In this document: in pieces, positions 29,701-45,183 of the stretch
How the letters are laid out: every line of letters begins with the position of its first letter
Position numbering within the stretch: the first letter of the stretch is position 1
Assembly (NCBI GenBank): GCA_017521025.1
Contig: JAFXEB010000003.1
Span: 55,506 to 119,505, forward strand
Direction: 5' to 3'
DNA from: Clostridia bacterium
GTDB lineage: Bacteria; Bacillota; Clostridia; Oscillospirales; CAG-382
DNA length: 64,000 bases
Notes under the pieces: model-generated
Told to the model about the DNA's origin: nothing
The model's database searches: none
What the model saw: only the letters and a program-made list of their open reading frames with translations
Position numbers and translations under genes: made by a program

Positions 29701-30526
29701 TCTCACACTTTGTGCGACGTTCCATCGCATCTGGAGGTGTCTTACCGGTTATCATCTTGTATAAAGTAGATGCAATGGCATACACATCCGTATGCGGTCC
29801 CTGATCTCCTCTGCTTCGATACTGTTCCTCTGGAGAGTAACCCGGCTTGATAATAACAGTCAAGCTTCTACTATGAGATGTTGTAGCATATCTTGACGCG
29901 CCAAAGTCAATAAGCTTTACTTCGCCAGATTTTGTAAGGAATATGTTGTCCGGTGCAATATCTCTATGAAGCAATCCCTCGTCGTGAACAGCTTGAAGCG
30001 ATTCCATCACGGGCATCAGCATTGCTACAGCTACATCTTCAGGGATTGTCTTTTCTCTTCTCAGATACTCTGTCAGTGTTTCGCCATCGAGAAATTCCAT
30101 TATGATGTATGCAGTATCATTTTCTTCAAAGCTATCAAAGATCTTTACGATACCCTGCTCATTTTGAAACTTTGCCAGATGCTTCGCTTCCTCAACGAAC
30201 TTCCTAAGCCCGTCATGAAACTGTTCATTCTTCTCGCCGTTAAAAACGGTTACCTGAGATTGTCCGGGCATTCTTGTGGAGAATTCACCAGGCAAATACT
30301 CTTTAATAGCCACCTTTTGCTCAAGCTTGCCGTCCCAACCTAGATAGGTAACACCAAAGCCTCCGTAACCAAGAACCTTGCCAACGATATATCTATCATA
30401 CAGCAATGTACCCGGTTCAATATGGATTGCTTCCTCAGCATGAGTTCCTACGACATATCCACAATGCGGACATATCTCAAATTCATCGCCGAAGAGTTCC
30501 ATACATCCCAAACATCTTTTACTCAC
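26762..30526 (-). CDS. Ser/Thr protein kinase: N-terminal zinc ribbon, Hanks kinase, TM, 4 PASTA, 5 Listeria-Bacteroides (Flg_new) repeats, unknown C-terminal domain
   Basis: CLGCMELFGDEFEICPHCG; GYGGFGVTY...VAIK...HRDIAPDN...DFGAS...PGYSPEE. TM at aa 342-370. PASTA-like units at aa ~386-660. Five ~72-aa repeats at aa 663-1025. Y/W/T-rich tail at aa 1026-1254. Confidence 0.9.
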   Translation of the reverse strand: MSKRCLGCMELFGDEFEICPHCGYVVGTHAEEAIHIEPGTLLYDRYIVGKVLGYGGFGVTYLGWDGKLEQKVAIKEYLPGEFSTRMPGQSQVTVFNGEKNEQFHDGLRKFVEEAKHLAKFQNEQGIVKIFDSFEENDTAYIIMEFLDGETLTEYLRREKTIPEDVAVAMLMPVMESLQAVHDEGLLHRDIAPDNIFLTKSGEVKLIDFGASRYATTSHSRSLTVIIKPGYSPEEQYRSRGDQGPHTDVYAIASTLYKMITGKTPPDAMERRTKCENQNKDILEEPHKINKKISPNRENAILNAMNVRIEDRTPDIATFIKDLNADPPVKRIYGKIKKIDIYSWPLWLKILAPSFLSVILIFSTLLLTGVIKFSNFTEEIVIPENIVTVPDVEGLYKDEALQLISEGKLLASTDGSIESEYIPAGKIILQTPVGGSYMDINGTVLLMISSGKGVASPENGISVVPYLIWDTKDDAISKLLQAGLAEPDIIEKHDDNVAYGSVIAQSVEAGTKLDEGTKITLTISIGPAAFDMPNVVGQSKENAENTLNTKGLVVVVEYKKTDAVAEGHVLSQSVAAGDSVKRGDQITIVVSSGRETIDVADVIGKSQAEAEEILKEQGFKVTVLENYDSTVPAGSVISQSPGAGTAQLPDSIIVIYVSKGKQPITVTYDANGGTVNPSSKSTYLSDAYGTLPTPTRTGYTFVGWYSAKSEGVEVTANTSITTPSNHTIYAIWKANTYSVSFNSNGGRSAPSSKNVQFGSKYGALGTVSRTGYTFNGWYTAASGGTKISGDSTYSTAANQTLYAQWKANSYAVAFNANGGSVSTSSANVTYDATYGSMPTPTRSGYTFNGWYTAASGGTKVTSSTKVSITSAQTLYAQWSIIKSTVSFNANGGSVSTSSTTVTFGSTYGTLPTPTRTGYTFNGWYTSTNGGTKITSSTSVSITSAQTLFAQWTINSYTLSYNANGGSVATSSNNVNYGSTYGSLPTPTRDYYTFSGWYTAASGGSKVTSSTTMGAGNTTIYAQWTLNPLSDWVLASNVPSSAKVEENKWTYTRTQTTESTSSSLSGWTPIGSYWNQTGSGSTNYATFHNGFDTSNSIYQSFSKSPYTAYDNGTTKREVSNSWAGYVYWHWMYDCGGANAGNRIICAYKGLENKHTGYNYKYFGAFTSTTNYVYQGTSGVGSATSGMGVYKVTDRTSYASSQGSYRWYRFDYYTSTYTDYQRIYQYQKVTAGNESTTQVTNGGEISNVQHYVRYREK
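27452..28540 (-). repeat. Five tandem ~216-222-nt coding repeats (Flg_new / Listeria-Bacteroides repeat domains)
   Basis: The consensus xYxVxFNANGGSVSTSSxxVTYGSTYGxLPTPTRTGYTFNGWYTAASGGTKVTSSTxVxxxxxQTLYAQW recurs five times. Confidence 0.85.
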
Positions 30527-32502
30527 TTTTTCTCGACCTTCCCTTCAAACACGAACTTCTGGTGAATATCAGATATTGCAGCAAGATACTTTGACTGTAT
30601 TTTAGATTCAAAGCAAATTGCATTTACAGGAATCTGTCCATCATTACATTCGCCGATCATCAGATAGCTTTGGTACACATTACCAAGCATCCAAGAAAGC
30701 AACCTTTCTGCCGCTTCGATTTCGGCCTGGTTGCCATCGCCTATGCTCCACTCATATATGTATCTGCAATAAATTTCATCACTGTCGTAATACACATATG
30801 TCTTTTCATAATTTGTTAGAGTTGTCCTGATTTCGTTCAAAACCATCGTGGACGACAACATCACAGGACTTGTATTTTCGCTATTATTAAGGAACTCTTC
30901 CTTTTCGCAGAATCCTTCCAAGATAAAGTTTGCCTGTAGCAAACCAAGGTATCTGTCGTCATATGCAATATTTGTAGCGTCGAAATCATCAATGTTTCCA
31001 AAGTATTTATCCGAGTAGTCAATACAGCTGGCACCACTGGTTACAACATAAGCAATTGGCACTTCAATAGCAAGAGGCATTTGCTTTTTGTTGCTGTAAA
31101 AGTCGTTGTACTGACTTAGGAACATTGCGTTATTGAATTGATCAGAAGACAGCACATTATCAAGATCTGTTGCCTGCTCAATAATATCCGCAGGCAATCC
31201 AGAACTCTCAAATAATGTCGGCAGCTTCCCTTGCTTTTCCGCTTCTCTAATGCGGTTTTCATATTCCGATTCAGGTATTGCAATTACTTCTACCGTTACT
31301 CCTTCATATTTTTGCTCGAAGTCGGCCTTGATGGCAAGCATGGCATCTTCTTCGGAAGAACCGTCAGCTACAGAAAACCATACAACGATATCTGCCGGGT
31401 CAAGGAATTGCTCCTCCTGTTTATTGAGGTATGTATCGTATGCAAAGAAGGAGCCAATCAGCAGCACCAAGCAAGCAACTGCAATTCCAACAAACCTCTT
31501 TAGACTTCTCCGCTTCTTTTCTTTGGCAAGTGGAATAATCTTTCGCTCACCATTAATAGCACTCAAGAATTCCTGCACAGTTTTAAAGCGCATATGCTTC
31601 TCGATTGCCATAGCCTTCATAATCGCATTGCTAAGATTCTCCGAGACTAGCGGATTGAGTAGATGCGGAGGAACAACTTCGTCATTAATTTTACGATTAG
31701 TGGACTCATCGGGTTTCACACCGGTTAGCATCACATACAATGAAGCACCCAGAGCATAAATATCAGTCCACGGCCCGATATTCTTACTATTGTCATACTG
31801 CTCGGTGGGAGAATATCCAGGCTTAAGAATGATATCGATCACATCGTCGGTGCTGTCTGCTAATTTAGCAGCACCAAGATCCATCAGCTTAATCTTAATT
31901 TCTTTTCCGGAGCAAATATAAATATTATCCGGTGCGACATCTCTATGGACAATATTTTGTTCGTGCAAAGACTTAAGTGCATTTCCGACCTCGTTAGCAA
32001 TCATCAATGCAAAGTCAATATCAATTCTGTCTCCCGATTGATTAAGGTAATCGTTCAACGCAACACCACGAAGCAATTCCATAACGATATATGCTGTGTT
32101 GTTCTCTTCAAAGAATTCAAAAACATTGGGAATGCTTCTATGGGAACCGAATTTTGCCATATTTCTTGCCTCTGCAAGAAATCTTTCCTTCCGGTATTCG
32201 AATTCCTCCATTGACTTCTTTGTAATAATGAGGTTCTTCAATCCCTCTGCTCTTGTGACAAGGCGACTTACAAAGAATTCCTTCACAGCAACAATTGTCT
32301 CGAGTTTCAAATCCCACGCACTATAAACAATACCAAAGCCACCAGATCCAACAGCTTGTCCCAAAATATATCTGTTAGCCAGTATCGTGCCGGGCACAAG
32401 GTGGATTGGTTCCTTTGGCTTAGTTATCTCAACACTGCCGCAATGTGGGCAAACCTGAAATGCATCCTCATATTCCTTAAAGCAGGCATAACATCTCTTC
32501 AT
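30523..32502 (-). CDS. Ser/Thr protein kinase: N-terminal zinc ribbon, Hanks kinase (DLG variant), TM, SBP-like ectodomain
   Basis: CYACFKEYEDAFQVCPHCG; GSGGFGIVY...VAVK...HRDVAPDN...MDLGAAK...PGYSPTEQ. TM FVGIAVACLVLLIGSFFAY. The ectodomain VVWFSVADGS...FEQKYEGVTVEVIAIPESEYENRI...KLPTLFES resembles family-1 solute-binding proteins. It overlaps the downstream kinase gene by 4 nt. Confidence 0.85.
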   Translation of the reverse strand: MKRCYACFKEYEDAFQVCPHCGSVEITKPKEPIHLVPGTILANRYILGQAVGSGGFGIVYSAWDLKLETIVAVKEFFVSRLVTRAEGLKNLIITKKSMEEFEYRKERFLAEARNMAKFGSHRSIPNVFEFFEENNTAYIVMELLRGVALNDYLNQSGDRIDIDFALMIANEVGNALKSLHEQNIVHRDVAPDNIYICSGKEIKIKLMDLGAAKLADSTDDVIDIILKPGYSPTEQYDNSKNIGPWTDIYALGASLYVMLTGVKPDESTNRKINDEVVPPHLLNPLVSENLSNAIMKAMAIEKHMRFKTVQEFLSAINGERKIIPLAKEKKRRSLKRFVGIAVACLVLLIGSFFAYDTYLNKQEEQFLDPADIVVWFSVADGSSEEDAMLAIKADFEQKYEGVTVEVIAIPESEYENRIREAEKQGKLPTLFESSGLPADIIEQATDLDNVLSSDQFNNAMFLSQYNDFYSNKKQMPLAIEVPIAYVVTSGASCIDYSDKYFGNIDDFDATNIAYDDRYLGLLQANFILEGFCEKEEFLNNSENTSPVMLSSTMVLNEIRTTLTNYEKTYVYYDSDEIYCRYIYEWSIGDGNQAEIEAAERLLSWMLGNVYQSYLMIGECNDGQIPVNAICFESKIQSKYLAAISDIHQKFVFEGKVEKK

Positions 32503-32508
32503 GAGCCT

Positions 32509-33471
32509 TTACTCTCCTTTTGGCATAAACTCTTCCCAAGAGAATCCTTCTCCGCATAGAGGCATAAACATAAACTTACTATCACCCAACTCAATAACAT
32601 CTCTTGTAGCAAGTTGCTTCGACTCCGTGATGTAATCCTCGTTCAAGTATGTAAGACCGCTACTATCACCAGGTTGCAAGAAGAAGTTCCTCTTCTTGGG
32701 CTCGTACACAATCAATGCATGCTTAATTCTTGAAATGCTATTATCGTCCGTAATCACAATTCTATTTTCTTCGCTTCTGCCTATAGAATTTTTTCCTGCG
32801 AAAATGCTGAAGCACTCACCAAAATGACAGCCACCAATGCAGACAAGCCAACCTACAACGGGTTCTGCAAAACGCTTAGGTTGATTTTGAGCAGGCGTAG
32901 AACCTGTAGCAGAACTAAAATAGCTCATTGTCTTTCCTTCGTTGCTTGCAGAAGCATTCTTTACCGCCTCCTTCAGCGAGGACGGCGCTTCATTCTGCTT
33001 GGGTTCTTCCTTCGGAGTCTCATTTGCCTTTACCGGTTCTTCAACAACTATCGGCGCATCACTTGCAGGCACAACATTTTCAGATTGCTTTGTTTGAGCC
33101 GCCACATTTTCCACAACATTACTTGCTTTCGATTCGCCGTTATTGTCAGAGTGAGAAGATGTCTGCCAAAAATCCAATGTAGGATTCTTCTTAAGAGGAG
33201 GAGTAGATTGGTTCTCCGGAACCTTCCGTTCCATTACATCAGTAGGCGTACTTCCATTGCCAAATTCAGATTGCGGAACTCTTGATGGAGTTTTGATTAT
33301 AGGCTGAACATCAGCATCTTTCTCCTTGCGGCCTCTTCCCCAAAAGCCCTTCTTTTCTTCTTTGACCGGTGCCGCATTTTCAGCAACCATAGCGGTCTCG
33401 CCACAATGCGGACAGGTGCTATAGGAATCTCCATCAAAGAAATGGCCGTTTTTACATCTAATTACATTCAT
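32509..33471 (-). CDS. Zinc-ribbon / disordered linker / C-terminal FHA-domain protein
   Basis: RCKNGHFFDGDSYSTCPHCG; low-complexity P/E/K/N-rich middle. The FHA-like C-terminus reads ...NSIGRSEENRIVITDDNSISRIKHALIVYEPKKRNFFLQPGDSSGLTYLN... Confidence 0.75.
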   Translation of the reverse strand: MNVIRCKNGHFFDGDSYSTCPHCGETAMVAENAAPVKEEKKGFWGRGRKEKDADVQPIIKTPSRVPQSEFGNGSTPTDVMERKVPENQSTPPLKKNPTLDFWQTSSHSDNNGESKASNVVENVAAQTKQSENVVPASDAPIVVEEPVKANETPKEEPKQNEAPSSLKEAVKNASASNEGKTMSYFSSATGSTPAQNQPKRFAEPVVGWLVCIGGCHFGECFSIFAGKNSIGRSEENRIVITDDNSISRIKHALIVYEPKKRNFFLQPGDSSGLTYLNEDYITESKQLATRDVIELGDSKFMFMPLCGEGFSWEEFMPKGE

Positions 33472-33485
33472 TATTTACCCCTCCG

Positions 33486-34283
33486 TCACTTAATCTTTAT
33501 AAGAGCAACAGTCATATTGTCTCTCGACTCATTACTGTTTTTCGCATTCTTTTTCGCCTTCATTTCAAGGGCTTGAATTGCTTCGCCGATATTGCTGAAA
33601 TTATCGACAATACGAGCAATTTCAGAATCGGAAACCACCTTGTATAAGCCATCCGACATTATGATTATTTTATCATCCTTCATAAGCTCAAAAGGATTTT
33701 CCGAATAATCAATCAACGCAAGATTTCCTATCCCAAGGAAACTGATCAGTGCCTCTCCACGAATATCTTCTTGCTTAAAATCTGACTCACCTATAAGTCC
33801 GGCATTCAATTTCTCAACAAGAACGGTGTGATAATTATGATCTTGAGTAAGCTGAACCATTTCTCCATCTCTTATCAAGTAGGCTCTGCTATCACCAACC
33901 GAACACCACATCAGTTTTTTCCGATTTATCAGAATAGCCACTAATGTGCTTCCCGCTTTTAACAGACCACCCTGCTGATTCTTTAGTTGAGCGATTGATG
34001 AGTCAGTCTTCTTTGCAACATCCACCATAAAATCCGTCTGATTGGAAATCACAAAGTTTTCTGCATATCGCGACAGGAAAGTCTGCACCGCCAACTCACT
34101 GGCGAGCTTTCCGCCTTCGTGACCACCCATTCCATCACAGACAACCACCAGGCCCTCGTCCTGCTTCAGAATATAGCCAAAGCTATCCTGTTGATCCTCG
34201 CGATCACCAATAACTGACAGCGCAGCCATCTGGAAGGCAGAGTTTTCATCTTTCACCAATTGTTGGTCGCTATGATATAGCAT
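33486..34283 (-). CDS. PP2C (PPM) family Ser/Thr phosphatase
   Basis: GDREDQQDSFG...VVCDGMGGHEGGKLAS...IIMSDGLY...DNMTVALI. Confidence 0.88.
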   Translation of the reverse strand: MLYHSDQQLVKDENSAFQMAALSVIGDREDQQDSFGYILKQDEGLVVVCDGMGGHEGGKLASELAVQTFLSRYAENFVISNQTDFMVDVAKKTDSSIAQLKNQQGGLLKAGSTLVAILINRKKLMWCSVGDSRAYLIRDGEMVQLTQDHNYHTVLVEKLNAGLIGESDFKQEDIRGEALISFLGIGNLALIDYSENPFELMKDDKIIIMSDGLYKVVSDSEIARIVDNFSNIGEAIQALEMKAKKNAKNSNESRDNMTVALIKIK

Positions 34284-34294
34284 TTAGATCCCTC

Positions 34295-35029
34295 CTATTC
34301 ATTCCAAACAGCTATCGCTGAATAATTGTCCATATTTTTTCCTTCGCCGTTTGTTTGGACAATCCTGATCATATTAGTCAGCCATTCTTCAACAGAACTC
34401 GCTTTCTTCAATTGTGCACACATTTCCTTCTCATCAATCAGTTCCCAAAATCCATCGGAGCACAAGAGGAACGCTTGACACTTCTTTAGAGGAATTGGAG
34501 CCATAAGTTCATACCTTGGCTCATCCCATTCAACCCCCATTACGCGCAACAGCGTGTTGCGATCAGGGTGGTACCTAATTTGCGCTTCCTTGATTTCTCT
34601 TGAGAGAACTAACATCTGCGGAATACTGTGATCCAACGTTCTTGTTTTAACCTTGTTTTTATAAAACACATAGCCCCTTGAATCACCGATATGCCCGATA
34701 TATGCGTTTCGGTCATCTGTAACCACAGCTACACCGGTGGTTTTCATTTTTCTTTTTGCATTACGAACTTTCTGCTCAGCCATTAGGATATCCTGAGACG
34801 CAGTAAATGCCTGGCCAATAAAATTAACAGCATCATCTGTTTTGTTGAATTGATCCTCAAACACCGCAACAACCAATGATGAGGCAACATCACCCATGCC
34901 GTGACCTCCCAATCCATCACAGAGAATATAACAGGTGTTTTCGCCGTTTTTGAAAACACCCACGGAGTCCTCGTTGATTTGACGACCACCTACATTTGTA
35001 AAAATTGCATGTTTGAAATTACCACTCAT
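34295..35029 (-). CDS. PP2C (PPM) family Ser/Thr phosphatase (second paralogue)
   Basis: GGRQINEDSVG...ILCDGLGGHGMGDVAS...LLCSDGFWE...DNYSAIAV. Confidence 0.88.
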   Translation of the reverse strand: MSGNFKHAIFTNVGGRQINEDSVGVFKNGENTCYILCDGLGGHGMGDVASSLVVAVFEDQFNKTDDAVNFIGQAFTASQDILMAEQKVRNAKRKMKTTGVAVVTDDRNAYIGHIGDSRGYVFYKNKVKTRTLDHSIPQMLVLSREIKEAQIRYHPDRNTLLRVMGVEWDEPRYELMAPIPLKKCQAFLLCSDGFWELIDEKEMCAQLKKASSVEEWLTNMIRIVQTNGEGKNMDNYSAIAVWNE

Positions 35030-35059
35030 ATTTTATCTCCTACAAACCTAACGCGGTCT

Positions 35060-35368
35060 TTATTTACACAATGTATTCGCTCTATTGATTGCTCTGGCTT
35101 GCGCCTCTTTGTAGAGCTTAGATGCCTCACGAATCGAACCCGAATAACTTTTAAGTGTTGTCTTCATCTTGTCAGTAGTAGATCCGGAAGAATTAATCTC
35201 ATCCCATTCCTTCTTGACCTGTTGATAGTCGTCGCCTTTCCATGTGCTTCCCACAGATAGCATAGCCGAATCAATGGAAGTCATACCTTTGTCAAGCTGT
35301 GCAACATAGTTATCAACCTGATCAGCTGCCGCCAGCATCTTTTGATGATTCACTTTGATATACGCCAT
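35060..35368 (-). CDS. WXG100-like small helical protein (candidate toxin partner)
   Basis: Start at ATG 35368 after AGAGGTG: MAYIKVNHQKMLAAADQVDNYV...SVGSTWKGDDYQQV... It has a central W-K-G motif and is about 102 aa. Confidence 0.7.
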   Translation of the reverse strand: MAYIKVNHQKMLAAADQVDNYVAQLDKGMTSIDSAMLSVGSTWKGDDYQQVKKEWDEINSSGSTTDKMKTTLKSYSGSIREASKLYKEAQARAINRANTLCK

Positions 35369-35381
35369 ATAGACACCTCTT

Positions 35382-35687
35382 TCACTTAAAGGCAGCAGCC
35401 GCCGAGGAAACATTTTTTTCCGTAACCTCGTACCCTTCATCAACTTGTTTGCGTATGAATGTAACCAAATCATTTACAACTGAGAACCGTGCATCCGCGA
35501 AACTACGCTTTATGTATTCATACTTATTGGCACAAGAGTTTGATGCCTCGCCTACCCAATTCTGCTGTAATGTGCGAATAGCGGAGTCAATATCAGACAA
35601 GTCATCCCTGATCTTCTTATTTGCAGTATCAATCTGATCGGCAGTATTGGAAACAACTGCTGTATTAATTAAGATAGCCAATCCCAA
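35382..35687 (-). CDS. WXG100-like small helical protein (start uncertain, probably TTG)
   Basis: ...IDTANKKIRDDLSDIDSAIRTLQQNWVGEASNSCANKY... contains W-V-G. The upstream part of the 181-aa track ORF is an alternative frame of the neighbouring gene. A GGGAGG site precedes TTG 35687. Confidence 0.6.
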   Translation of the reverse strand: MGLAILINTAVVSNTADQIDTANKKIRDDLSDIDSAIRTLQQNWVGEASNSCANKYEYIKRSFADARFSVVNDLVTFIRKQVDEGYEVTEKNVSSAAAAFK

Positions 35688-36141
35688 AACGCCTCCCACG
35701 CATTCTTTGATTTTTCTTGTTTGAATCACTCGATTTCTTATTTGAACTACTATTTTTGCTTTGTGACTGAGCTTTAGCCTTTGCTTCCGCCTCCGCCTTG
35801 GCCTTTGCCTCTGCCTCCGTTTTAGCTCTGGCTTCCGCTTCTGCTCGAGCCTTTGCTTCTGCTTGGGCTCTTGCTTGAGCCTCAGCTCTTGCCTGTGCCT
35901 CGTCCTCTGCGCGTTTTCTCGCAGCAAACTCCTCTGTAACTGCAGACAAATCCATGTTGTTGAGTTTCTGCTTTACAGATTCATACTGTTTCGCCGCAGC
36001 AATTACGCTATTTGCACACTTCTCATTGCCAATACCCTCAAAATCACTGCTTATACCACCGGCAATACTATAGAGCTCATCGATAATGCCCTGCAGCTCA
36101 TTTTTAATTAAGTACAGTTCGTACTGTGCATTTGCATCCAT
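35665..36141 (-). CDS. Helical protein with Ala/Glu/Lys/Arg coiled-coil repeat and basic tail
   Basis: 158 aa. Helical N-terminus MDANAQYELYLIKNELQGIIDELY..., then RAEAQARAQAEAKARAEAEARAKTEAEAKAKAEAEAKAKAQ. Confidence 0.6.
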   Translation of the reverse strand: MDANAQYELYLIKNELQGIIDELYSIAGGISSDFEGIGNEKCANSVIAAAKQYESVKQKLNNMDLSAVTEEFAARKRAEDEAQARAEAQARAQAEAKARAEAEARAKTEAEAKAKAEAEAKAKAQSQSKNSSSNKKSSDSNKKNQRMRGRRFGIGYLN

Positions 36142-36152
36142 ACGATTTCCTC

Positions 36153-37790
36153 CTAAAATTGTTCGACCACGTTGCGCTCCGTGTGATCAAAGTCATTAGC
36201 TGTTTCCTCTAAATATTTAGCGCAGTTTGAAATACGCCCACTTGATCCTGTAAGCAAATCTGCTTGTAATAAATTAAACAAATCACGCAAACCTACTTTT
36301 AGGTATAGTGAATCCATTTTGCGATCAAGGGCGCAGAGTCTTCGATTTACTTTAACAAGCCGATCCGCATATCCTCTCAATGCCGCCGTGTTGGCACGAA
36401 TGTATGGATGCATTGTTACATATGCATTGGCGATGAACCCATCAAATGCACCTATAACTTTAGCATCTCCGCATCCTTTAGATGCATCAATGTTTTTTAC
36501 ATTACTATCAATTTTTCTCCAAAAGGAGTCAATATCCAATCCATCAATTTCTATTTTGGATAATATGAAAGTAATAATCTTGTCATCGTCATTATCTGTT
36601 AATTGTCCCTTTGTAAAGTCAATTAAGCCCGATAGTCCAACGATGCTAAAATCACCAACTTTTAATGTAAACAAATCATCAAGATTGCTCAATCCAATTG
36701 TAGTAAGAAGTTTATCTACATCTTCCGCAGATAGATTTTGCACATCCATATATTTAACTAGGTACGCTATTATCAAAGCAAGAGTATCAGTGTCCGCAAG
36801 ACAATCATTGATCATTTCTTGGACCTCCAATTTCTCTCCAGAAAATACCTTTGCGATCAACGGGCACAGATATCCTGTGATTTTCTTTTTTTCTTCGTCA
36901 CTTGCATTGTTGACAACAAATGTCGTAAACTCGTGTAACATTTTTATAGATTCGTCCTCGTCAGTTTCAATGATAGTGGGATTCCCTTTATCATCAACAA
37001 CAATATTACCATTTTCATCGGTCATAAAGAACGAATTTGGACTATGGTGTTCACCGGTATTCGCAATTCCAAATCCTTGACAATACACTTGTTTCGAGCC
37101 AGGTATAGGAAAAAGCAATGCGTGAACATAGTCGGTTGACACGGAATAGGCAGTAATTGTATCTGCTTTATTTATGATTTTCGGTCCATACTTATCTATA
37201 AACTCTTGTGAAACACCTTGTCCATCATATGCAACGCATCTCGTCACTTTGTCAGAGGTAACGGCCACATACATGGCTTTATTCGCCCCTTTTGAATGTC
37301 CTGTAACGGTTATGTTGTCATACGGGAGACTTTTGATATACTCTCGCGCTTCTAATTGACAAGGGGTGTCTGCAACATTTAGACCTTCAATATTGTCACC
37401 CCATTCACCTTTTGTAGTACCACGAAAAGCGACAATTGCTTCGTTTGAATTATTATCCTCGGAAAAGCAAAGAGCAAGCGTTGTTCCCTCGGAATCTTTC
37501 ATAGTGTCGGTCAATACAAGATCTTTCATTTCACTTGACTTCAAATAGCGAATGATCCCAGCCCACTCTTTTGCACTAACATATTCAATAGAAGTATCTC
37601 CTTTTGATTCAAGGGTGGCAAGGGCCTTTTCATCAAAACAATTGAGGATTTTGGAAATTGTCATATTTTTTTGTCCTGCATTAATACTGGTAAAACCACT
37701 TATACCAGCTTCAGATGCAACGCTTGAGTTGAGATAGGTTAATTGCTCAATCATTCCCAAATGATTATCTGTTAGAACCACGAATGTCAC
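36153..37790 (-). CDS. Mbeg1-like/DUF2974 alpha/beta-hydrolase (lipase) with long C-terminal helical domain; candidate T7SS toxin
   Basis: There is no signal peptide. VAFRGTTKGEWGDNIEG... and the nucleophile elbow ITVTGHSKGANKAMYVA lie in the N-terminal half. The C-terminal ~250 aa look helical. It is flanked by WXG-like genes and a lipoprotein gene. Confidence 0.7.
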   Translation of the reverse strand: MTFVVLTDNHLGMIEQLTYLNSSVASEAGISGFTSINAGQKNMTISKILNCFDEKALATLESKGDTSIEYVSAKEWAGIIRYLKSSEMKDLVLTDTMKDSEGTTLALCFSEDNNSNEAIVAFRGTTKGEWGDNIEGLNVADTPCQLEAREYIKSLPYDNITVTGHSKGANKAMYVAVTSDKVTRCVAYDGQGVSQEFIDKYGPKIINKADTITAYSVSTDYVHALLFPIPGSKQVYCQGFGIANTGEHHSPNSFFMTDENGNIVVDDKGNPTIIETDEDESIKMLHEFTTFVVNNASDEEKKKITGYLCPLIAKVFSGEKLEVQEMINDCLADTDTLALIIAYLVKYMDVQNLSAEDVDKLLTTIGLSNLDDLFTLKVGDFSIVGLSGLIDFTKGQLTDNDDDKIITFILSKIEIDGLDIDSFWRKIDSNVKNIDASKGCGDAKVIGAFDGFIANAYVTMHPYIRANTAALRGYADRLVKVNRRLCALDRKMDSLYLKVGLRDLFNLLQADLLTGSSGRISNCAKYLEETANDFDHTERNVVEQF

Positions 37791-37811
37791 CTCCGATCAA
37801 ACACAAGCTGT

Positions 37812-38573
37812 TTATTTATTAATATAAACAAGCTCCCTTGCATAGTAAAATTTATCTGACAAAAAATCTTCAAATGTGCTTTTTTCAACTTGGTCGACCA
37901 GGCAGTCTTTTAGGCGTATAAATTGAACGGATGAATAGAGCGAATGATCCGAAAGGAATCTCTTGCTCATATTGATAAAATTTTGGAATTCGGCATCCGA
38001 ACATGCTATTCCATCTACTAATATCCAGATTGCCGCCTCTGTTGCTCCATCAAACGCATTTTCCAATTTGGGAATTGCAGCGAGGGTGGTTTTCGTTATC
38101 GTCGCGAATACTTTTATTTCTGCTGTGGGCAGGAACTGCTTCATTGCGTTACACACATAATTTTCATAATCTTTTACCACTGCAACCGCAATATAATCAT
38201 CGATGTATCCATCTTGTGTTTTGGTAACAGAAAAAGTATGGTTGTTGTCATCAATAGTACACATTGTCACATGCTCTGCATCAGACCAACTCTTTGCTGT
38301 ATAACTAATATACTTCACAGTAATACCATACTTGTTTTCCGCGTGTACCAGCATTTCTTCGATGGTTATTATAACTCTTTTCTGGGTAGAAGTTAACTCA
38401 GCGTATCCCGTTGGCAATCCACGTGCAATGAGTATTTCTTTTTGTCTCTCGTTGAGCAGGACATCACTCTGATTTACGTTTTGATTATTTATATTGTTCA
38501 TCGTACAACCACACACCCCAATCATAAGTAATCCCAGAATTATAAAAATGAATACCAATCTTCTTGTATTCAT
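37812..38573 (-). CDS. Lipoprotein of unknown function (candidate immunity to the adjacent lipase)
   Basis: MNTRRLVFIFIILGLLMIGVCGC signal/lipobox. It lies immediately upstream of the lipase gene in the same operon. Confidence 0.55.
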   Translation of the reverse strand: MNTRRLVFIFIILGLLMIGVCGCTMNNINNQNVNQSDVLLNERQKEILIARGLPTGYAELTSTQKRVIITIEEMLVHAENKYGITVKYISYTAKSWSDAEHVTMCTIDDNNHTFSVTKTQDGYIDDYIAVAVVKDYENYVCNAMKQFLPTAEIKVFATITKTTLAAIPKLENAFDGATEAAIWILVDGIACSDAEFQNFINMSKRFLSDHSLYSSVQFIRLKDCLVDQVEKSTFEDFLSDKFYYARELVYINK

Positions 38574-38620
38574 TCACAGCTCTCCTTGACACAAGTCAAA
38601 AGCCGTTTTATCGTTCTTCG

Positions 38621-38914
38621 CTACTGAAACAAATCGTAGAGATTACATCTTAAATCTTCTTCTGGCTCATTGCAATTGTTTCTTATAGTCACCAATTCAT
38701 GCCTAATTTCCTCTATCCTATCACAAAATAATGTCAATTCATCTACAGGCGCTGAAGAAATTCTATCTTTTATAGAGAAGCCAGATAAGACCTGATCCAT
38801 TTCCAATTCCAAGCAATGAATTTTCTCCATTAAAATTTCGGCATCTCTTTTAACGGACTCCACATGAGTGATAAGGTTATCATAGTCCCTTAATGTGGGT
38901 ACAATTTTCGCCAT
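38621..38914 (-). CDS. Small helical hypothetical protein
   Basis: Start ATG 38914 after AGGAAGGGA (MAKIVPTLRDYDNLITHVESVKRDAEIL...). About 97 aa, with no recognisable motif. Confidence 0.45.
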   Translation of the reverse strand: MAKIVPTLRDYDNLITHVESVKRDAEILMEKIHCLELEMDQVLSGFSIKDRISSAPVDELTLFCDRIEEIRHELVTIRNNCNEPEEDLRCNLYDLFQ

Positions 38915-38927
38915 GATTCGTCCCTTC

Positions 38928-39818
38928 CTATTCCCAAAATCTTCTTTTATTTCTTTCTGTACTAAATACATATTCTGCAGACGGTGGAAAACAGCTAAAT
39001 GCTATCTCAAATGCCTCTATATTAGGACAATACGAACCAGTTCTCTTCACTGCAAACACAACTTCTTTAAATGCATTTAGGTAGCGTTTTTCTGACAACA
39101 CATCAGAAAAGACCTCGGCCACAGTAATCGGTGGATTGTGAAAAGCTCCACAGCCAAATGCTCCTAAAACAATTGCCTCTACATCGTTCTCGATAGCGAC
39201 TTCAAAAATATTTCTTACTCTGCCGCCAAGAATTTCGCGTAATTGTTTTTCAGGATAAGTTGAATGCACTGCCAAAATCGGAGCGGCACAAGTCAACACA
39301 TCTATTGAATACCGGTCTTCTATATACTCCTGTGAGCTTTTCGAAGGGAAAACATTAGGATCATATTTACGATCCTCTCTAATAACTGTAACTCCCTTAG
39401 TATAGATTGTCCTGTCTGATGCAGGAAAGCACTCACCATATCGCCGATTCAACATTGATTTATGTGCATCATAGTAAGCACTCGCTTGTTTAGATATTAA
39501 ACATGGATATAAATTGCTCGCTCTACATAAATACTCCTCTTGCGCATTGGCTCCGCGCAGCACGCCTCCACCAGGTTCAACAGGATTTGCAAAATTAAGT
39601 ACGCAAGTTTTATGTCCTTCTTTAACTAATCGCCGTGCAGCGATCAATGTCAAGTTCTCTTCGAAGTGAATGTTTGATGCATATTCAGGTTTCTTACAGG
39701 ACATAAACCCTTCACCATAGACCGCTGTTGAATTAATCGCTTCTGACGTTTTACTATTAAGCGTGTAATTGTGCTCAATTACATACAAAGTGTCCTTGAT
39801 GATATCTATATTTGTCAT
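38928..39818 (-). CDS. TIGR02452/bacterial-type PARG-like macrodomain protein (ADP-ribose glycohydrolase family)
   Basis: VLNFANPVEPGGGVLRGANAQEEYLCRASNLY carries the PARG signature GGG-x7-QEE. VLGAFGCGAFHNPP is also present. The start is ATG 39818, 6 nt after GGAGGTG. Confidence 0.75.
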   Translation of the reverse strand: MTNIDIIKDTLYVIEHNYTLNSKTSEAINSTAVYGEGFMSCKKPEYASNIHFEENLTLIAARRLVKEGHKTCVLNFANPVEPGGGVLRGANAQEEYLCRASNLYPCLISKQASAYYDAHKSMLNRRYGECFPASDRTIYTKGVTVIREDRKYDPNVFPSKSSQEYIEDRYSIDVLTCAAPILAVHSTYPEKQLREILGGRVRNIFEVAIENDVEAIVLGAFGCGAFHNPPITVAEVFSDVLSEKRYLNAFKEVVFAVKRTGSYCPNIEAFEIAFSCFPPSAEYVFSTERNKRRFWE

Positions 39819-39848
39819 AACATTCACCTCCCACACCCTACCTCAATC

Positions 39849-40106
39849 TTACCGGGGCGTTCCACACTTTGGGCAAACAACATGGGCAGCATCGAACTGT
39901 GTAGCACAATTTCTGCAAATAGCTGTTCCGCGGTTTGCTCCAGCGTATGCATTGCCCTTAGAGTATGAACCGTAGGATACATCATTAGAATGAGAACCCC
40001 CGCGAGACATCTTCTTTAGGATGATACACTGTAAAACGATGACAACAGCAAGAAGAACTGCTAAAATTCCAATCAACACATAACTTATAACAAATTCAAT
40101 ATACAT
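39849..40106 (-). CDS. Small membrane-anchored zinc-ribbon protein
   Basis: N-terminal TM helix FVISYVLIGILAVLLAVVIVLQCIIL; C-terminal CRNCATQFDAAHVVCPKCG. Confidence 0.55.
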   Translation of the reverse strand: MYIEFVISYVLIGILAVLLAVVIVLQCIILKKMSRGGSHSNDVSYGSYSKGNAYAGANRGTAICRNCATQFDAAHVVCPKCGTPR

Positions 40107-40121
40107 ATTTCTATTACCCCT

Positions 40122-41261
40122 TTAGTCTATGTGAAACTTAAATTCTTCGTTAGCAAACCTAATTATAGATCCATCATTCAACAGTTCTTTTACTCCTGGC
40201 TGAGTTCTTCTTCCGTTAAGGTATGTACCATTCGTAGAGCCCAAGTCTACCACATAGAATTTTCCTTGATCCTTGATAATATCAGCATGTTTCCTGCTCA
40301 CATTATTGTTGAAGATGCGATAATCCGTGACCCCTTCCATCTTTCCAACTCGAAAAGGAAATTTATTTATGATAATCTTACCTTCTCTTGAACAGTCTTC
40401 AAGCCAAACACTTTGAGCCATTCGCTGCGAGCCTCTAAAAACTGTCACTACACCATTCTCATCTTTATTTACGGATATATCGCTGCGCTTCTGCCTTTCT
40501 GCATCAGTCTCTGACTTCTTTACTGTTTCCGGCCAAAACTCCGAATCGATTGTCGGTGTGTTTTTGGGGGCAGTATTTGTTGATCGAGATAATAATCGCT
40601 TGCCACAGAACGGGCAGATTTCCTCTGACGTGTTTACTTTAGAACCACAGGCAGGGCACAACCCGCTGCGATTGGTGTCACCTTTCTGTTGAAGAAGGGC
40701 TTCTGCCACTTTATCGCAATATGATTCTAACATTCCTACCGTATAGGCTGTAACGCTATTTAAATCCTGCACTAACATTTGAACATATCCAATGTCTTCC
40801 CCTGCTTCGAAGTTGCATTGTGCGACCGCCTCGAGAAGAAAAGACTTCAGATTCCCTGTGCTTTCAAAAGGTTGTAAGGGAACATACATCATATACACAC
40901 GCCAAGTAGAAGGATCTATGTATACAGCTTGTGCTGTCCACATTAAAAGATCTTTGCTGAAACGGTTTTTTTCTATCCCTTTGAGAATCAGAGCGATGTG
41001 TCTCAAAAGGACTACAAACAGGCGGCGATTCATTCCTTGAAGGTGCAAGAACTCAGATAACGGAATCAGTCCCTCTGTATTGTATGTTAAGTTGGTCTTA
41101 AATCCAGACGTATCAACATCAAAAAGAAGCAATCCTTCAACGGTGCCCTCAGAGATGGCATTAACCTCACGCTGATTTAGTTGTTGCCCTTTTTTTCCTT
41201 TGACCTCTCTTATCAATTTCCTCTTTCGCACATCTATCACCTCTAATCCATAATTGGACAT
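40122..41261 (-). CDS. Three-part protein: unknown N-terminal domain, zinc ribbon, C-terminal FHA domain
   Basis: CPACGSKVNTSEEICPFCG in the middle. FHA: FRVGKMEGVTDYRIFNNNVSRKHADIIKDQGKFYVVDLGSTNGTYLNG. Confidence 0.8.
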   Translation of the reverse strand: MSNYGLEVIDVRKRKLIREVKGKKGQQLNQREVNAISEGTVEGLLLFDVDTSGFKTNLTYNTEGLIPLSEFLHLQGMNRRLFVVLLRHIALILKGIEKNRFSKDLLMWTAQAVYIDPSTWRVYMMYVPLQPFESTGNLKSFLLEAVAQCNFEAGEDIGYVQMLVQDLNSVTAYTVGMLESYCDKVAEALLQQKGDTNRSGLCPACGSKVNTSEEICPFCGKRLLSRSTNTAPKNTPTIDSEFWPETVKKSETDAERQKRSDISVNKDENGVVTVFRGSQRMAQSVWLEDCSREGKIIINKFPFRVGKMEGVTDYRIFNNNVSRKHADIIKDQGKFYVVDLGSTNGTYLNGRRTQPGVKELLNDGSIIRFANEEFKFHID

Positions 41262-41933: not shown

Positions 41934-44372
41934 CTACTCACCAACATACACGGCACAATTCGCATAATATTTCCCGTCTTTTGAGACCACTTTAATGCTT
42001 GCTGATCCGGGACCATTAGCCACAACCTTGCCGTCACTAACGGATATAATACTTCCGTCGGAACTCGACCAGGTAAAATCATCTGCATCATAACCTTCAG
42101 GATACTCTATGCTTACCACAGCATTCTCACCGATAGATAGGTAGATGTAGTAGGAAGATATCACCATGTTTGTAGTACCGTTACTTTCATTGCCAGCGTT
42201 GTTTTCTTCCTGTTGTTCTTCTTCATTTATAGGAATTTCCAGACGCTCCTGCCACAACACAACCTCTTTTTCGGGAAGTATTTCAAACTCCACTGCTGCA
42301 CCAGGTGCATTACTACCTTCGGGTCCAACAATCGTCCATGTATATTTAAGGTTCAACTTGTTAGCCAGCGTATTCTTATCTGTCCCAATTTTAAGTTTTA
42401 CTATCGGAACATATCCATTAATTCCATACGAATGGGATGTTTTTCGTTCGATAATAAATGCATCATCCGTTTCCACCCATTCTGTATAGTATTCAAGCCC
42501 ATGTCTAGCCTTAACATTAACTGCTGCAGAAATATCTACGTTTATAAAAGGAATTGTACAAAATGAAAGTTGAGCACTTAGGTTCGGTCCTGCCTCAAAT
42601 TCAAGCTCTGCCTCCGCACCAGCCGAAGAATCTCGAGTGCAAGTTTTCTTTGTTTTTCCTGATTTATATTCTGCCTTTGTGTTGTTTGTAATAGAGGCTT
42701 TCACGGAAATCTCACCATTCAATTCCGCATAAAGACTCACTTCCAATGTTAGTGTGCCTACTCCTCCCAAGGAAATCGGAATAGAACATATCGTAAGTTC
42801 TTCCTCCAGTTTGCCCTTTACAGAAAGTGACACCGACGCACCATAATTCGTCTCAACTGTGAAACTCTCGATGCCCGTAGGAATTCCAGTATCGGCACCT
42901 AAAATCTTCGCTGTTTTGATCTTATATGTTGGTATAACGTACAGGTCTGTTATAGAAACAGAACCAACTATCTCATAACCTCCGCTAAACTTGTTTGTAA
43001 TATTTGGAATATTTTCCTCTCCCGACTGGCTTGTTACATATGGCTTGTTCTTGTCCGGAACAAAATTTTCATCACTCTTCTGCACCCCATACAAAGCGTC
43101 GCGTAACTCATCAGCTGTAATAACGCCCTTTTTATATGCCTCTATCGCCTCATCATTGCTGTAAGGATCAGACCCAAAAAGACTTTTATCTGGAAATACA
43201 CTTTTCTTTGAAAACCATTCGCCAAGTTCTGGACTAGCACCAGTCTCTGTCAGCAACTGTTCGATAGCCAAGGATTGGCTGCCCCATTGTGGGCTAAGGC
43301 TTACGGTTCCTTTGGTAAAATTAAATGAGGCAGTAAAAGACAATGCCTGATCCTTACTTGTTCCGATACCCAAAGGGATCACTGCATAGTCGGATTTATA
43401 ATTACCTGCTAAATTCTGCAAAGAATAGTTATTGTTCGAACTGGGCGAGTAAGAAAGACTAACTACACTAGGACCACTATTTGAGTTGTAGGAGACAGGA
43501 GACACGCCTCCACCTGTATGGGTAATTGTTACACCACTCGCAGGAACAATATCCTCAAACTCAGGAATTGCAACACCGGAATACTCTATTTCATCAAAAA
43601 CCTCATGGAATTCAGGTGTGCAGGTTTCGATGGTATATGTTCCATCGCCGTTAACCAATACACTTACCACTTTAATTGCAACACCATCTGGGTTTTCCGT
43701 GGTCCCCGGTGCAATTAAAACATCATCAATATTTGGTGTTAGATTGGATACAACATATTTGTTTTCACCATTGCTAACAATGTTGGATGTTTGTCGTTGA
43801 TCAGAAACTTCCTCATTAACCACTACCTTGTCTATGGGAGTTACTTCTTGTGTTAAATATAGGAACTTCGCTGATGATAATATGGATTGGCATTCTTCCT
43901 CGGTTACATATCGATCATAATCTAGGCCAGCAGGCACTATGTTGTTGGCAATTGCATAGGCCAAAGCCTTGTCTTCCTTTGTTTCGCCCTCATAGGTTGC
44001 AACATTAGAGCCAACAGCATAAACAGCGGTAATGGCGACATATTTCAGAGATACCAACTCATCTGGGTTGAATGTCTCTTCAGTAACAGGAAATACTTCC
44101 CACTCCACACACGATTGAACATATGTAAAGGCTTGATTAGATGCCTGAATATCTGTGAAATATGGTTCGGAACTGAGGCATTCATCCATGCCAAAACAAA
44201 TGGCCAACTTCTCCGCCCATTCTATTTTGGTGATATAATTTCCGTTGTCGACATTGTCAGTCCCATTGCCGTTAGACTCTCCATTATCAAATGAAAAATG
44301 TGGTAATGAGCAAGAAGATAATGTAGAAACCAACAATATAACAGCAAGAATTAAAGAAAGTAGCCGCTTCAT
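41934..44372 (-). CDS. Large lipoprotein with C-terminal Big_2 (Ig-like) domain, unknown function
   Basis: MKRLLSLILAVILLVSTLSSC lipobox. C-terminus: VVSIEYPEGYDADDFTWSSSDGSIISVSDGKVVANGPGSASIKVVSKDGKYYANCAVYV. Confidence 0.65.
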   Translation of the reverse strand: MKRLLSLILAVILLVSTLSSCSLPHFSFDNGESNGNGTDNVDNGNYITKIEWAEKLAICFGMDECLSSEPYFTDIQASNQAFTYVQSCVEWEVFPVTEETFNPDELVSLKYVAITAVYAVGSNVATYEGETKEDKALAYAIANNIVPAGLDYDRYVTEEECQSILSSAKFLYLTQEVTPIDKVVVNEEVSDQRQTSNIVSNGENKYVVSNLTPNIDDVLIAPGTTENPDGVAIKVVSVLVNGDGTYTIETCTPEFHEVFDEIEYSGVAIPEFEDIVPASGVTITHTGGGVSPVSYNSNSGPSVVSLSYSPSSNNNYSLQNLAGNYKSDYAVIPLGIGTSKDQALSFTASFNFTKGTVSLSPQWGSQSLAIEQLLTETGASPELGEWFSKKSVFPDKSLFGSDPYSNDEAIEAYKKGVITADELRDALYGVQKSDENFVPDKNKPYVTSQSGEENIPNITNKFSGGYEIVGSVSITDLYVIPTYKIKTAKILGADTGIPTGIESFTVETNYGASVSLSVKGKLEEELTICSIPISLGGVGTLTLEVSLYAELNGEISVKASITNNTKAEYKSGKTKKTCTRDSSAGAEAELEFEAGPNLSAQLSFCTIPFINVDISAAVNVKARHGLEYYTEWVETDDAFIIERKTSHSYGINGYVPIVKLKIGTDKNTLANKLNLKYTWTIVGPEGSNAPGAAVEFEILPEKEVVLWQERLEIPINEEEQQEENNAGNESNGTTNMVISSYYIYLSIGENAVVSIEYPEGYDADDFTWSSSDGSIISVSDGKVVANGPGSASIKVVSKDGKYYANCAVYVGE

Positions 44373-44482: not shown

Positions 44483-44782
44483 TTACTTAAATGCCTGTGC
44501 GTTGGTCTGAATTGCGCCTTCAGTGGATTCGTAGCTCTGTGCGGTGTTCACGAGGAACTTTGCGTAGGATTCAACAACATTCTTGTATTCCTCAAAGCGA
44601 GGCTTCATTGCATTCATAGCAGCTCTGATATCGGATGCTGCGTCACTCTTCCAAGTGGCTCCCAGGTCATTCATGCTCTTATTGATGTCAGCAAGCTTGC
44701 TGTCCAAAGTGGAGTTGATGTTGCGAACCTTCTCTGCGGTGTCAAGCAACACTTGGGTTGAAATCTGAATAGTATCTGCCAT
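44483..44782 (-). CDS. WXG100 family protein (motif variant W-K-S)
   Basis: 99 aa, MADTIQISTQVLLDTAEKV...LGATWKSDAASD...; size and helical-hairpin layout match EsxA-like proteins. Confidence 0.75.
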   Translation of the reverse strand: MADTIQISTQVLLDTAEKVRNINSTLDSKLADINKSMNDLGATWKSDAASDIRAAMNAMKPRFEEYKNVVESYAKFLVNTAQSYESTEGAIQTNAQAFK

Positions 44783-44796
44783 TATCTTCTTCCTCC

Positions 44797-45099
44797 TTAG
44801 TTGACCAGTTTGCGAGCCTCGGACACAACTGTATCCTGAGTGTCGCGATACGCTTTTGCGCTCTTTCTGAGAAAATCAGCATAGTTGAGCATCAAGGTAT
44901 GCATCTTTGCAAAGTCATCCTTGAAGCCATCAATCTGATTCACAAACGCCACATTGTCTTTTCCGCTCCATGTAGAGGCCATCGCATTTGTCTCAGAATA
45001 GAGCTGATCATACTGCGTCTTGTAATCGGCTGCCAAACTCTCAATTCTGCCTGCGGTGGACTCCAACTGTTCCGGGTTAACCTGAATTGTTCTTGTCAT
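44797..45099 (-). CDS. WXG100 family protein (EsxA/EsxB-like)
   Basis: 100 aa, MTRTIQVNPEQLESTAGRIES...MASTWSGKDNVAF (W-S-G). Confidence 0.85.
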   Translation of the reverse strand: MTRTIQVNPEQLESTAGRIESLAADYKTQYDQLYSETNAMASTWSGKDNVAFVNQIDGFKDDFAKMHTLMLNYADFLRKSAKAYRDTQDTVVSEARKLVN

Positions 45100-45183
45100 T
45101 TTTTAATGACCTCCTTATAATTTTATCAACATTAGCTCACGGAAGACGAGCTAATATATGAACATATAACAATCTGCCTATTC

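Follow-up and report, generated by a model that had tools for sequence, protein, structure and literature searches.

Five neighbouring proteins encoded on a 64,000-nucleotide stretch of the metagenome-assembled genome (MAG) of an uncultured, gut-type Clostridia bacterium, namely positions 55,506 to 119,505 of contig JAFXEB010000003.1 and referred to here as the window, bear a small zinc ribbon of common frame, and the question raised by this locus is whether the ribbons are copies of one module that joins their carriers in a single complex. As judged from its gene content, the island that encodes them is a T7SSe-like type VII secretion system (T7SS) locus, the five ribbon proteins probably control its secretion machine, and sequence comparison divides the ribbons into three classes. 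The interpretation that we favour, with a probability of roughly 45%, is that of a T7SSe-like locus with three ribbon classes, in which the ribbons of two receptor kinases would cap the kinase domain and the remaining ones would serve as tethered docking ribbons.

A zinc ribbon comprises two beta-hairpin knuckles with four metal ligands. The first-pass annotation had reported the motif on five proteins of the island, and all five were confirmed in long open reading frames (ORFs) of the minus strand. The carriers and their ribbons are listed below with lengths in amino acids (aa); TM denotes transmembrane.

26762-30526, minus strand: Kin1, 1254 aa, receptor Ser/Thr kinase with ribbon, kinase domain, TM helix at about residues 343-361, four PASTA and five Flg_new repeats (Pfam, TM scan)
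30458-30514, minus strand: ribbon of Kin1, residues 5-23, CLGCMELFGDEFEICPHCG (motif scan)
30523-32502, minus strand: Kin2, 659 aa, receptor Ser/Thr kinase with ribbon, kinase domain (Pfam Pkinase, 1.2e-32), TM helix at about residues 333-351 and a weakly solute-binding-protein-like ectodomain (SBP_bac_8, 5.4e-5, under its cut-off)
32437-32493, minus strand: ribbon of Kin2, residues 4-22, CYACFKEYEDAFQVCPHCG (motif scan)
32509-33471, minus strand: FHA2, 320 aa, with ribbon, basic-aromatic patch KKGFWGRGRK, low-complexity linker of about 180 residues and divergent FHA domain (Pfam FHA, 9.1e-10)
33400-33456, minus strand: N-terminal ribbon of FHA2, residues 6-24, CKNGHFFDGDSYSTCPHCG, with ligands C-H-C-C
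39849-40106, minus strand: TseK-like protein, 85 aa, with N-terminal TM helix, variable linker and C-terminal ribbon (TM scan)
39861-39917, minus strand: C-terminal ribbon of the TseK-like protein, residues 64-82, CRNCATQFDAAHVVCPKCG, with four Cys ligands (C4)
40122-41261, minus strand: TseJ-like protein, 379 aa, with DUF6382 (5.4e-11), ribbon, disordered linker and FHA domain (4.8e-17; Pfam)
40602-40658, minus strand: central ribbon of the TseJ-like protein, residues 202-220, CPACGSKVNTSEEICPFCG, C4

The ribbon frame described earlier, CxxC-x(10-13)-CPxCG, was upheld except for its variable spacing, since every ribbon spans 19 residues in a uniform C-x2-C-x10-C-P-x-C-G arrangement; a CxxC first knuckle, claimed for all five, is present in four, and FHA2 has C-x3-H instead. 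The ribbons are predicted to bind metal. For the strict motif, composition alone predicts 5.4e-4 occurrences in the six-frame translation of the 64 kb, with none in 200 shuffles, and the CPxCG pentapeptide was observed 6 times in the six frames against 0.42 expected, all 6 inside the five ribbon genes. Five events scattered randomly over 64 kb would all fall within a 10.8-kb span with a probability of 1.4e-4. Within the window the ribbons are strongly enriched in the island; the remaining CxxC...CxxC matches in open frames (12397-12477, 13137-13196 and 17445-17516, plus strand) lie outside it, are devoid of CPxCG and look like housekeeping zinc sites of a ribosomal protein operon and of an adenylate kinase lid.

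The island (MAG protein accessions MBR6593716-735) has a G+C content of 0.38-0.44 as against 0.46-0.52 in the flanks, and its close relatives carry the labels Oscillospiraceae or Ruminococcaceae. Its genes are transcribed in the order HTH (helix-turn-helix) protein, EssC, YukD-like protein, two WXG100 proteins, 812-aa Big_2 lipoprotein and a split small gene; then the TseJ-like protein, the 85-aa TM-ribbon peptide (TseK-like), a PARG-like protein, a lipoprotein and a phospholipase-like protein; and finally three small helical/WXG100-like proteins, two PP2C phosphatases, FHA2, Kin2 and Kin1. The features that define the locus besides the ribbon proteins are as follows.

About 26.7-50.3 kb of the window, minus strand for all genes: the island
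44483..50006, minus strand: core secretion genes, with EssC at 45432-50006, the YukD-like protein at 45184-45435 and WXG100 proteins at 44797-45099 and 44483-44782
41934..44372, minus strand: 812-aa lipoprotein with C-terminal Big_2, which every syntenic locus has at this site, after the WXG100 genes and before TseJ
33486-34283 and 34295-35029, minus strand: two PP2C (PPM) phosphatases (Pfam PP2C_2 and PP2C)

T7SSe, together with T7SSj, was defined by Garrett, Higginson and Palmer in 2024 (PMC11217815). Assignment of the island as T7SSe-like follows from EssC (1524 aa), which scores 1051.7 bits with the NCBIfam model T7_EssCb_Firm against a cut-off of 778.4, and from the YukD, two WXG100, DUF6382-FHA, Pkinase and PP2C genes, which match the component list of that study. 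The likeness extends to the N-terminal FHA domain of EssC (match at 111-169), which holds the full phosphothreonine (pThr)-binding consensus GR...SxxH...NG and reads IGRAED...STYHA...SRNGT; to the two WXG100 proteins (TseA1, TseA2) and a YukD-like TseB, which here scores under the Pfam cut-off of 27 (E = 1.1e-4, 23.3 bits) in a conserved position; to a membrane Ser/Thr kinase (TseD) and a PPM phosphatase (TseF), of which two each are encoded here, the kinases having one TM helix each; and to TseJ, with DUF6382 N-terminal and FHA C-terminal, followed directly downstream by the small one-TM protein TseK. In part it extends to T7SSj as well. The island differs from T7SSe in its kinase ectodomains, which are PASTA/Flg_new and solute-binding-protein-like as against the helical one described for TseD, and in adding a second kinase, a second PP2C and an extra ribbon-FHA protein. 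No TseH-like one-TM protein was found in the island, where the TM scan gave no further small TM ORF, nor was TseI (large, immunoglobulin-like, with signal peptide and C-terminal TM helix), the 812-aa Big_2 lipoprotein having no C-terminal TM helix; TseI-like proteins are present in two outgroup loci, L004 (Ruminococcus sp. 210702-SL.1.03) and L091.

EssC is joined by a predicted threonine-phosphorylation control module, made up of a pair of membrane receptor kinases, the two PP2C phosphatases, the FHA adaptors TseJ-like and FHA2, and the TseK-like 85-aa membrane peptide, and one zinc ribbon of about 19 residues is found on each member apart from the phosphatases; motif scan and syntenic comparison revealed none in either PP2C protein. 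The main text of the T7SSe study contains 0 occurrences of zinc and calls the cytoplasmic part of TseK unstructured, whereas its supplement lists a 'zinc ribbon domain-containing protein' among the matches of the TseK similarity search and its TseJ alignment shows a '...DAKFCSAC...' knuckle (PMC11217815).

Conservation of the ribbons was assessed in six syntenic loci of identical gene order from other metagenomes or MAGs (L084, L085, L086, L088, L090 and L092), whose TseJ proteins are between 63% and 30% identical to that of the window; these and a handful of others make up the comparative sample. The TseK, FHA2 and Kin2 ribbons are kept in 6/6 syntenic loci and the Kin1 ribbon in all five whose contig reaches Kin1. 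The TseJ ribbon is missing from two of the six (L086 and L090); it is present in 53 of 68 full-length DUF6382-FHA homologues, including 46 of the best 47, and lost in the other 15. Across the syntenic loci the four always-kept ribbons show 48-95% identity, comparable to folded domains, and the TseJ ribbon 0-69%, while the linkers adjoining the ribbons have decayed to 7-52%. Since the ribbons stay similar where neighbouring linkers do not, selection on more than the metal ligands is indicated, and in terms of sequence the ribbons are under purifying selection beyond these ligands. Of the wider scans, that of genome contigs with the TseJ alignment fell on the generic FHA motif, so that 79 of 80 loci held unrelated FHA proteins and L004 alone was useful, and that of metagenome contigs with a DUF6382-only alignment gave one truncated locus, L096.

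Whether the five ribbons are the same module, as had been claimed, was addressed by BLOSUM scores on the non-ligand positions, compared with a small background of 62 ribbons from 1.2 Mb of unrelated FHA-centred loci. Kin1-Kin2 (44) and Kin1-FHA2 (23) were the sole pairs above all 62 background ribbons, and the TseK and TseJ ribbons were no nearer to the other ribbons than random ones. Instead of one ribbon on five proteins there are, by sequence, three classes (kinase, FHA2 and TseJ/TseK) that differ in similarity, structural context and partner domains. A single profile of all five, with about 20 columns that are mostly Cys, would fall short of significance in a search of 1.8e9 proteins. TseJ and TseK bear C4 ribbons of the generic CPxCG type, which share the canonical CPxCG...CPxCG form with Zn_Ribbon_1 (PF13240), Zn_ribbon_3 (PF13248) and DZR (PF12773). 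The isolated TseJ ribbon alone reaches a gathering score (Zn_Ribbon_1 25.0, cut-off 25; Zn_ribbon_3 26.8, cut-off 27; DZR 22.8, cut-off 27.3); the best scores of the others were 21.4 for TseK with DZR_2 and, more weakly, 17.5 for Kin1 and 18.5 for Kin2 with DZR. The FHA2 ribbon matched none of Zn_Ribbon_1, Zn_ribbon_3 and DZR, and Pfam gave only partial sub-threshold matches to either of its knuckles. Sequence searches of the PDB with the isolated ribbons returned nothing significant.

The kinase class was traced with residues 1-370 of Kin1, which retrieved 6298 proteins at E <= 1e-10, the best 120 of them (at least 51% identity) being inspected. A complete N-terminal ribbon occurs in 99 of these best 120, and about 16 more begin at a Met within CxGCME, apparently through miscalling of the start codon. 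C5, C8, C19, P20, C22 and G23 of Kin1 are invariant in 67 homologues, and the linker after the ribbon is likewise conserved at Y24, G27, T28, H35, P38, G39, L42, R45 and Y46, the last six of these at 90% or above. In the AlphaFold2 (AF2) model of Kin1 (predicted template modelling score 0.88), residues 1-45 have a predicted local distance difference test (pLDDT) value of 94-96. The model thereby suggests that the ribbon and the conserved 20-residue linker form a rigid N-terminal cap that would pack on the kinase domain. The conserved T28-x-x-E of the linker could be an FHA docking site.

With reference to known kinases, the NCBIfam model Stk1 (NF033483, equivalog cut-off 450) gave 336.3 for Kin1 and 157.5 for Kin2, with model position 2 aligned to residue 39 and residue 38, respectively. 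As the model starts only there, ribbon and linker are an add-on to the kinase, which bears out the earlier remark that an N-terminal ribbon is not standard in PknB-type PASTA kinases. The first knuckle of the kinase ribbons is CxGCM or CxACF and not the CxxCG of PknG_rubred (PF16919), a model that matched neither Kin1 nor Kin2 even at E <= 10. A PknG-like placement of the kinase ribbon was rejected, PknG lying outside the 50 best structural matches and a PknG_rubred match being absent. The best structural matches of the Kin1 kinase domain were PDB entries named PpkA, 5hnv (E 2.6e-23) and 5x1r (E 2.9e-23), PpkA being the threonine kinase associated with the type VI secretion system (T6SS).

Ribbon kinases also occur outside the locus type of the window: in Clostridium sp. 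AM58-1XD (L093) beside a Tad pilus cluster where DUF6382-FHA, PP2C and a TadZ-like ATPase are also encoded, within another T7SS variant (L094), and beside an FHA-ABC transporter with FHA and PP2C genes (L095). Within the window all six CPxCG pentapeptides lie in the five island genes; the kinase ribbon is not specific to this locus type, being found also in these three settings. A large Clostridial receptor-kinase family appears to carry a ribbon cap that is absent from model PASTA kinases.

For FHA2, residues 1-32 (33376-33471) were compared by phmmer with 1.84 billion cluster representatives (E <= 1e-3), which uncovered a C-H-C-C family of CxNGH ribbons in 462 clusters, superseding a word-index search with the 52-aa N-terminus that had given 3 fragments only. 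The consensus from 233 copies is [VI][KR]CxNGH[FY][YF]DxDx[YF]xxCPxCG, with His conserved in 100%, Gly in 95% and Asn in 75%; the membership pattern allows [DE] at the second acidic position, and FHA2 residues 4-24 (IRCKNGHFFDGDSYSTCPHCG) fit every position of it. Of 148 family proteins (P0244-P0391), 131 have the ribbon beginning at residue 6, and a protein holds 1-12 tandem copies; the ribbon stands singly at residue 6 of FHA proteins or in standalone arrays reaching 12. Among 132 members scanned, the domain partners were FHA (59), kinase (3) and TIR (3), and most array proteins have no other recognised domain. As far as sequence tells, the family is mostly FHA-fused or arranged in tandem arrays, and a full-length match to the CxNGH ribbon was obtained from neither Pfam nor NCBIfam. 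The KKGFWGRGRK patch after the FHA2 ribbon is conserved in the syntenic loci and may add membrane affinity. The FHA2 and Kin2 genes share a reading frame, with only a stop codon and six bases between them, and in a close relative a 983-aa protein on 3 contigs (P0412) is an in-frame read-through fusion of the two (...PKGEQLLMKRCFACF...), a natural fusion that links FHA2 to Kin2.

The third class is borne by proteins of dissimilar build. The regions of the TseK-like protein are 43-78% (TM helix), 7-46% (linker) and 48-92% (ribbon) identical in the syntenic loci, which indicates a ribbon tethered to the TM helix by a fast-evolving linker; the positive-inside rule predicts that this ribbon is cytoplasmic, and it is the only cytoplasmic feature of the protein. 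The TseK-like 85-aa protein has no NCBI accession, its neighbours being numbered MBR65937xx, and the deposited MAG probably lacks an annotation for the gene. AF2 gives the TseJ ribbon a pLDDT of 61-76 with flanks below 50, and in this low-confidence model the ribbon resembles a bead between disordered linkers. For the DUF6382 region of TseJ (residues 20-190) the pLDDT exceeds 90, and the model shows a beta-rich lobe with helices after it; hhalign aligned DUF6382 to the kinase hinge and alpha-E region of a kinase profile with a probability of 1.7%, and an EssB-like pseudokinase fold is possible.

In the working that we propose, Kin1 and Kin2 would sense envelope cues through their PASTA/Flg_new and solute-binding-like ectodomains and would then phosphorylate threonines on components of the secretion machine, marks that the FHA domains of EssC, TseJ and FHA2 would read and the PP2C phosphatases erase. 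The tethered ribbons would provide a second, phosphorylation-independent contact, by which the adaptors and the membrane peptide are pre-docked at the kinase/EssC complex, and the kinase ribbon would have a structural or regulatory role within its own molecule, for which the rubredoxin module of PknG offers a parallel in principle. Candidate pThr sites are T28 of the kinase linker and the S/T-rich linkers of FHA2 and TseK.

The nearest precedent for a docking ribbon is ArnA of Sulfolobus acidocaldarius, whose ribbon (C21, C24, C35, C38) alone suffices to bind unphosphorylated ArnB and whose FHA domain binds phospho-ArnB (PMC12852372, PMC6509490). FHA2 shares with it the architecture of N-terminal ribbon, linker and FHA domain, the CxxC-x10-CxxC ligand spacing equals that of the C4 ribbons here, and the ArnA-ArnB switch is under the control of a kinase and a phosphatase, as is proposed for the module here. 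On account of this precedent a docking role for the FHA2, TseJ and TseK ribbons is plausible. The archaeal system differs in regulating archaellum expression, in having a vWA protein as partner, for which there is no counterpart in the island, and in showing no sequence similarity outside the FHA domain. For the kinase ribbon the comparable case is PknG of Mycobacterium tuberculosis, in which a rubredoxin module beside the catalytic core down-regulates catalysis and limits access to the substrate site (PMC8546545). There too a four-Cys metal module stands directly N-terminal to a Hanks-type kinase core and an FHA protein, GarA, is a partner, whereas PknG is soluble and its module is larger, with two CxxCG motifs (Pfam PknG_rubred). 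At the level of the pathway, the T6SS proteins PpkA, PppA and Fha1/TagH are alike in placing a secretion machine under the post-translational control of a membrane kinase, a PP2C and an FHA adaptor, and differ in belonging to a Gram-negative contractile system and in the vWA ectodomain of PpkA. We know of no report of zinc ribbons on components of that T6SS pathway. Its threonine phosphorylation was noted as a parallel when T7SSe was defined (PMC11217815).

Several observations weigh against a capped kinase with tethered docking ribbons. A high pLDDT does not establish packing of the Kin1 ribbon against the kinase. Some lineages do without the TseJ ribbon, and the kinases of the outgroup T7SSe-like loci L004 and L091 are without any ribbon; ribbons are therefore unnecessary for T7SSe function in general, and the multi-ribbon state is, on present sequences, a feature of one clade of T7SSe-like systems. 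TseJ has GK for GR in its FHA domain, and the FHA domain of FHA2 is without the canonical SxxH (it reads SRIKH) and without the Asn of NG. Such atypical phosphate-binding residues weaken a simple account in which these adaptors read pThr through FHA, and both domains may bind atypically. The RanBP2-type signature is W-x-C-x2-C-x3-N-x6-C-x2-C. The ArnA ribbon is of this type, and its signature W and N are absent from all five ribbons though the spacing matches; the analogy with ArnA would be functional and implies no homology.

Against this background the other explanations can be compared. The ribbons might be passive structural staples that only stabilise short, otherwise unstructured segments and have no partner, their conservation reflecting a folding constraint; we regard this as doubtful, and it deserves attention because the profile matches are to generic zinc-ribbon Pfam models, mostly under the gathering score, because the conserved non-ligand positions are largely the aromatic or hydrophobic core positions typical of ribbons, and because the TseJ ribbon has been deleted in nature. 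TseK is difficult to accommodate in it, being a TM helix, a variable linker and a ribbon alone and yet a core component of T7SSe and T7SSj (PMC11217815): a functionless ribbon would leave TseK without a cytoplasmic function. Surface residues are conserved as well (FD in TseK, NG and D in FHA2, ME in Kin1), and staples would hardly account for tandem arrays of as many as 12 CxNGH ribbons. These arrays find a place in an unlikely but wider proposal, namely that the ribbons are a dedicated docking code for phosphorylation-controlled envelope machines, with CxNGH and tethered C4 ribbons acting as multivalent protein-binding beads. If so, the beads would bring the FHA adaptors, the ribbon-capped kinases and the TseK anchor together with one another, with YukD/TseB (ubiquitin-like) or with EssC, standalone arrays of up to 12 ribbons would be clustering scaffolds, and Clostridia would employ this code again on Tad pili, FHA-ABC transporters and T7SS variants.

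One shared docking surface for all five, by which copies of a single module bind the same partner or each other and assemble one complex, was the original proposal; evidence for such a surface was not found, and we now hold it to be improbable. It could draw on the 19-residue C-x2/3-[CH]-x9/10-CPxCG frame common to all five and confined to one island, on the D-x-[FY]-x-x-CPHCG stretch common to Kin1, Kin2 and FHA2, and on a 178-aa protein of L094 that joins a CxNxH ribbon to two TseJ-like C4 ribbons, so that ribbon types can evidently travel together. It is opposed by the TseK and TseJ ribbons being no more like the others than random ribbons are, by the different partner-domain distributions of the three classes, by the kinase ribbon appearing buried in an intramolecular cap in the AF2 model, and by kinase-class ribbons in loci without TseK and FHA2; moreover, loss of the TseJ ribbon is independent of the other four, which stay, and this argues against an obligate five-way ribbon complex. 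The ribbons might also be a metal or redox sensor, whose Cys4 or Cys3His sites lose zinc upon oxidation or zinc limitation; this loss would switch the kinases and the binding of the adaptors and would make secretion responsive to oxidative or metal stress. The PknG rubredoxin module is reported to pass redox perturbations to kinase activity (PMC8546545), and here, too, the kinase ribbon stands immediately N-terminal to the catalytic core; such a sensor is nonetheless decidedly improbable, as the host is presumably an anaerobe (Clostridia MAG), PknG_rubred similarity is lacking in Pfam and the genes of the locus give no sign of redox or metal homeostasis. A nucleic-acid-binding role, in which contact of the ribbons with DNA or RNA would connect signalling to gene expression, is least credible of all: the PDB sequences that match the TseJ ribbon best, if weakly, are the RNA- or RNA polymerase-associated Nop10, Spt4 and RpoP, at E 0.04-0.4, which is not significant and reflects the generic fold, three of the five carriers are membrane proteins, and the comparable ribbon-FHA protein ArnA showed no DNA binding (PMC12852372).

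To our knowledge, T7SSe-type systems have a 2024 genomics definition only and no experimental data. Ribbon folds as such are ordinary, and T7SSe, ribbon-FHA and metal-module-kinase architectures all have precedents. A literature search found no paper on zinc ribbons of T7SS-associated kinases or FHA proteins, and it yielded no description of ribbons on every signalling component other than the phosphatases within one T7SSe clade, of a ribbon cap in a large family of Clostridial receptor kinases, or of the CxNGH C-H-C-C family and its FHA link. The finding refines a recently described system without overturning current understanding, its mechanism being proposed by analogy, and the ribbons, that of TseK included, offer handles for testing T7SSe assembly.

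The remaining genes of the island merit brief description. A candidate type VII lipase toxin cassette of 'reverse' domain order lies at 35060-38573 (minus strand) and is conserved in L084, L085, L086, L088 and L090. Its core is a 545-aa protein (36153-37790) with an N-terminal Mbeg1/phospholipase-like domain and a helical C-terminus, preceded by a lipoprotein (37812-38573) that is a possible immunity protein and followed by a 158-aa helical protein (35665-36141) and two WXG100-like proteins (35382-35681 and 35060-35368); the layout resembles that of S. aureus TslA and its partners (PMC10730906). Between TseK and this cassette, at 38621-39836 (minus strand), a 302-aa protein with a microbial-type PARG catalytic domain (Pfam 1.1e-34) is encoded together with an overlapping 116-aa ORF. 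Both occur only in the window's version of the island, being absent from the five loci that conserve the cassette, and may be a variable cargo or immunity-type gene.

At 41321-41919 (minus strand), two ORFs of 129 and 62 aa match what in L090 and L096 is one gene of about 211-214 aa, and this gene appears split or frameshifted in the window genome as well as in L002 and L003. The low-G+C island of the window adjoins lysS, and in two syntenic loci a phage-type integrase lies immediately upstream of EssC (L084, 857-1696; L088, 621-1730); the island may be horizontally mobile.

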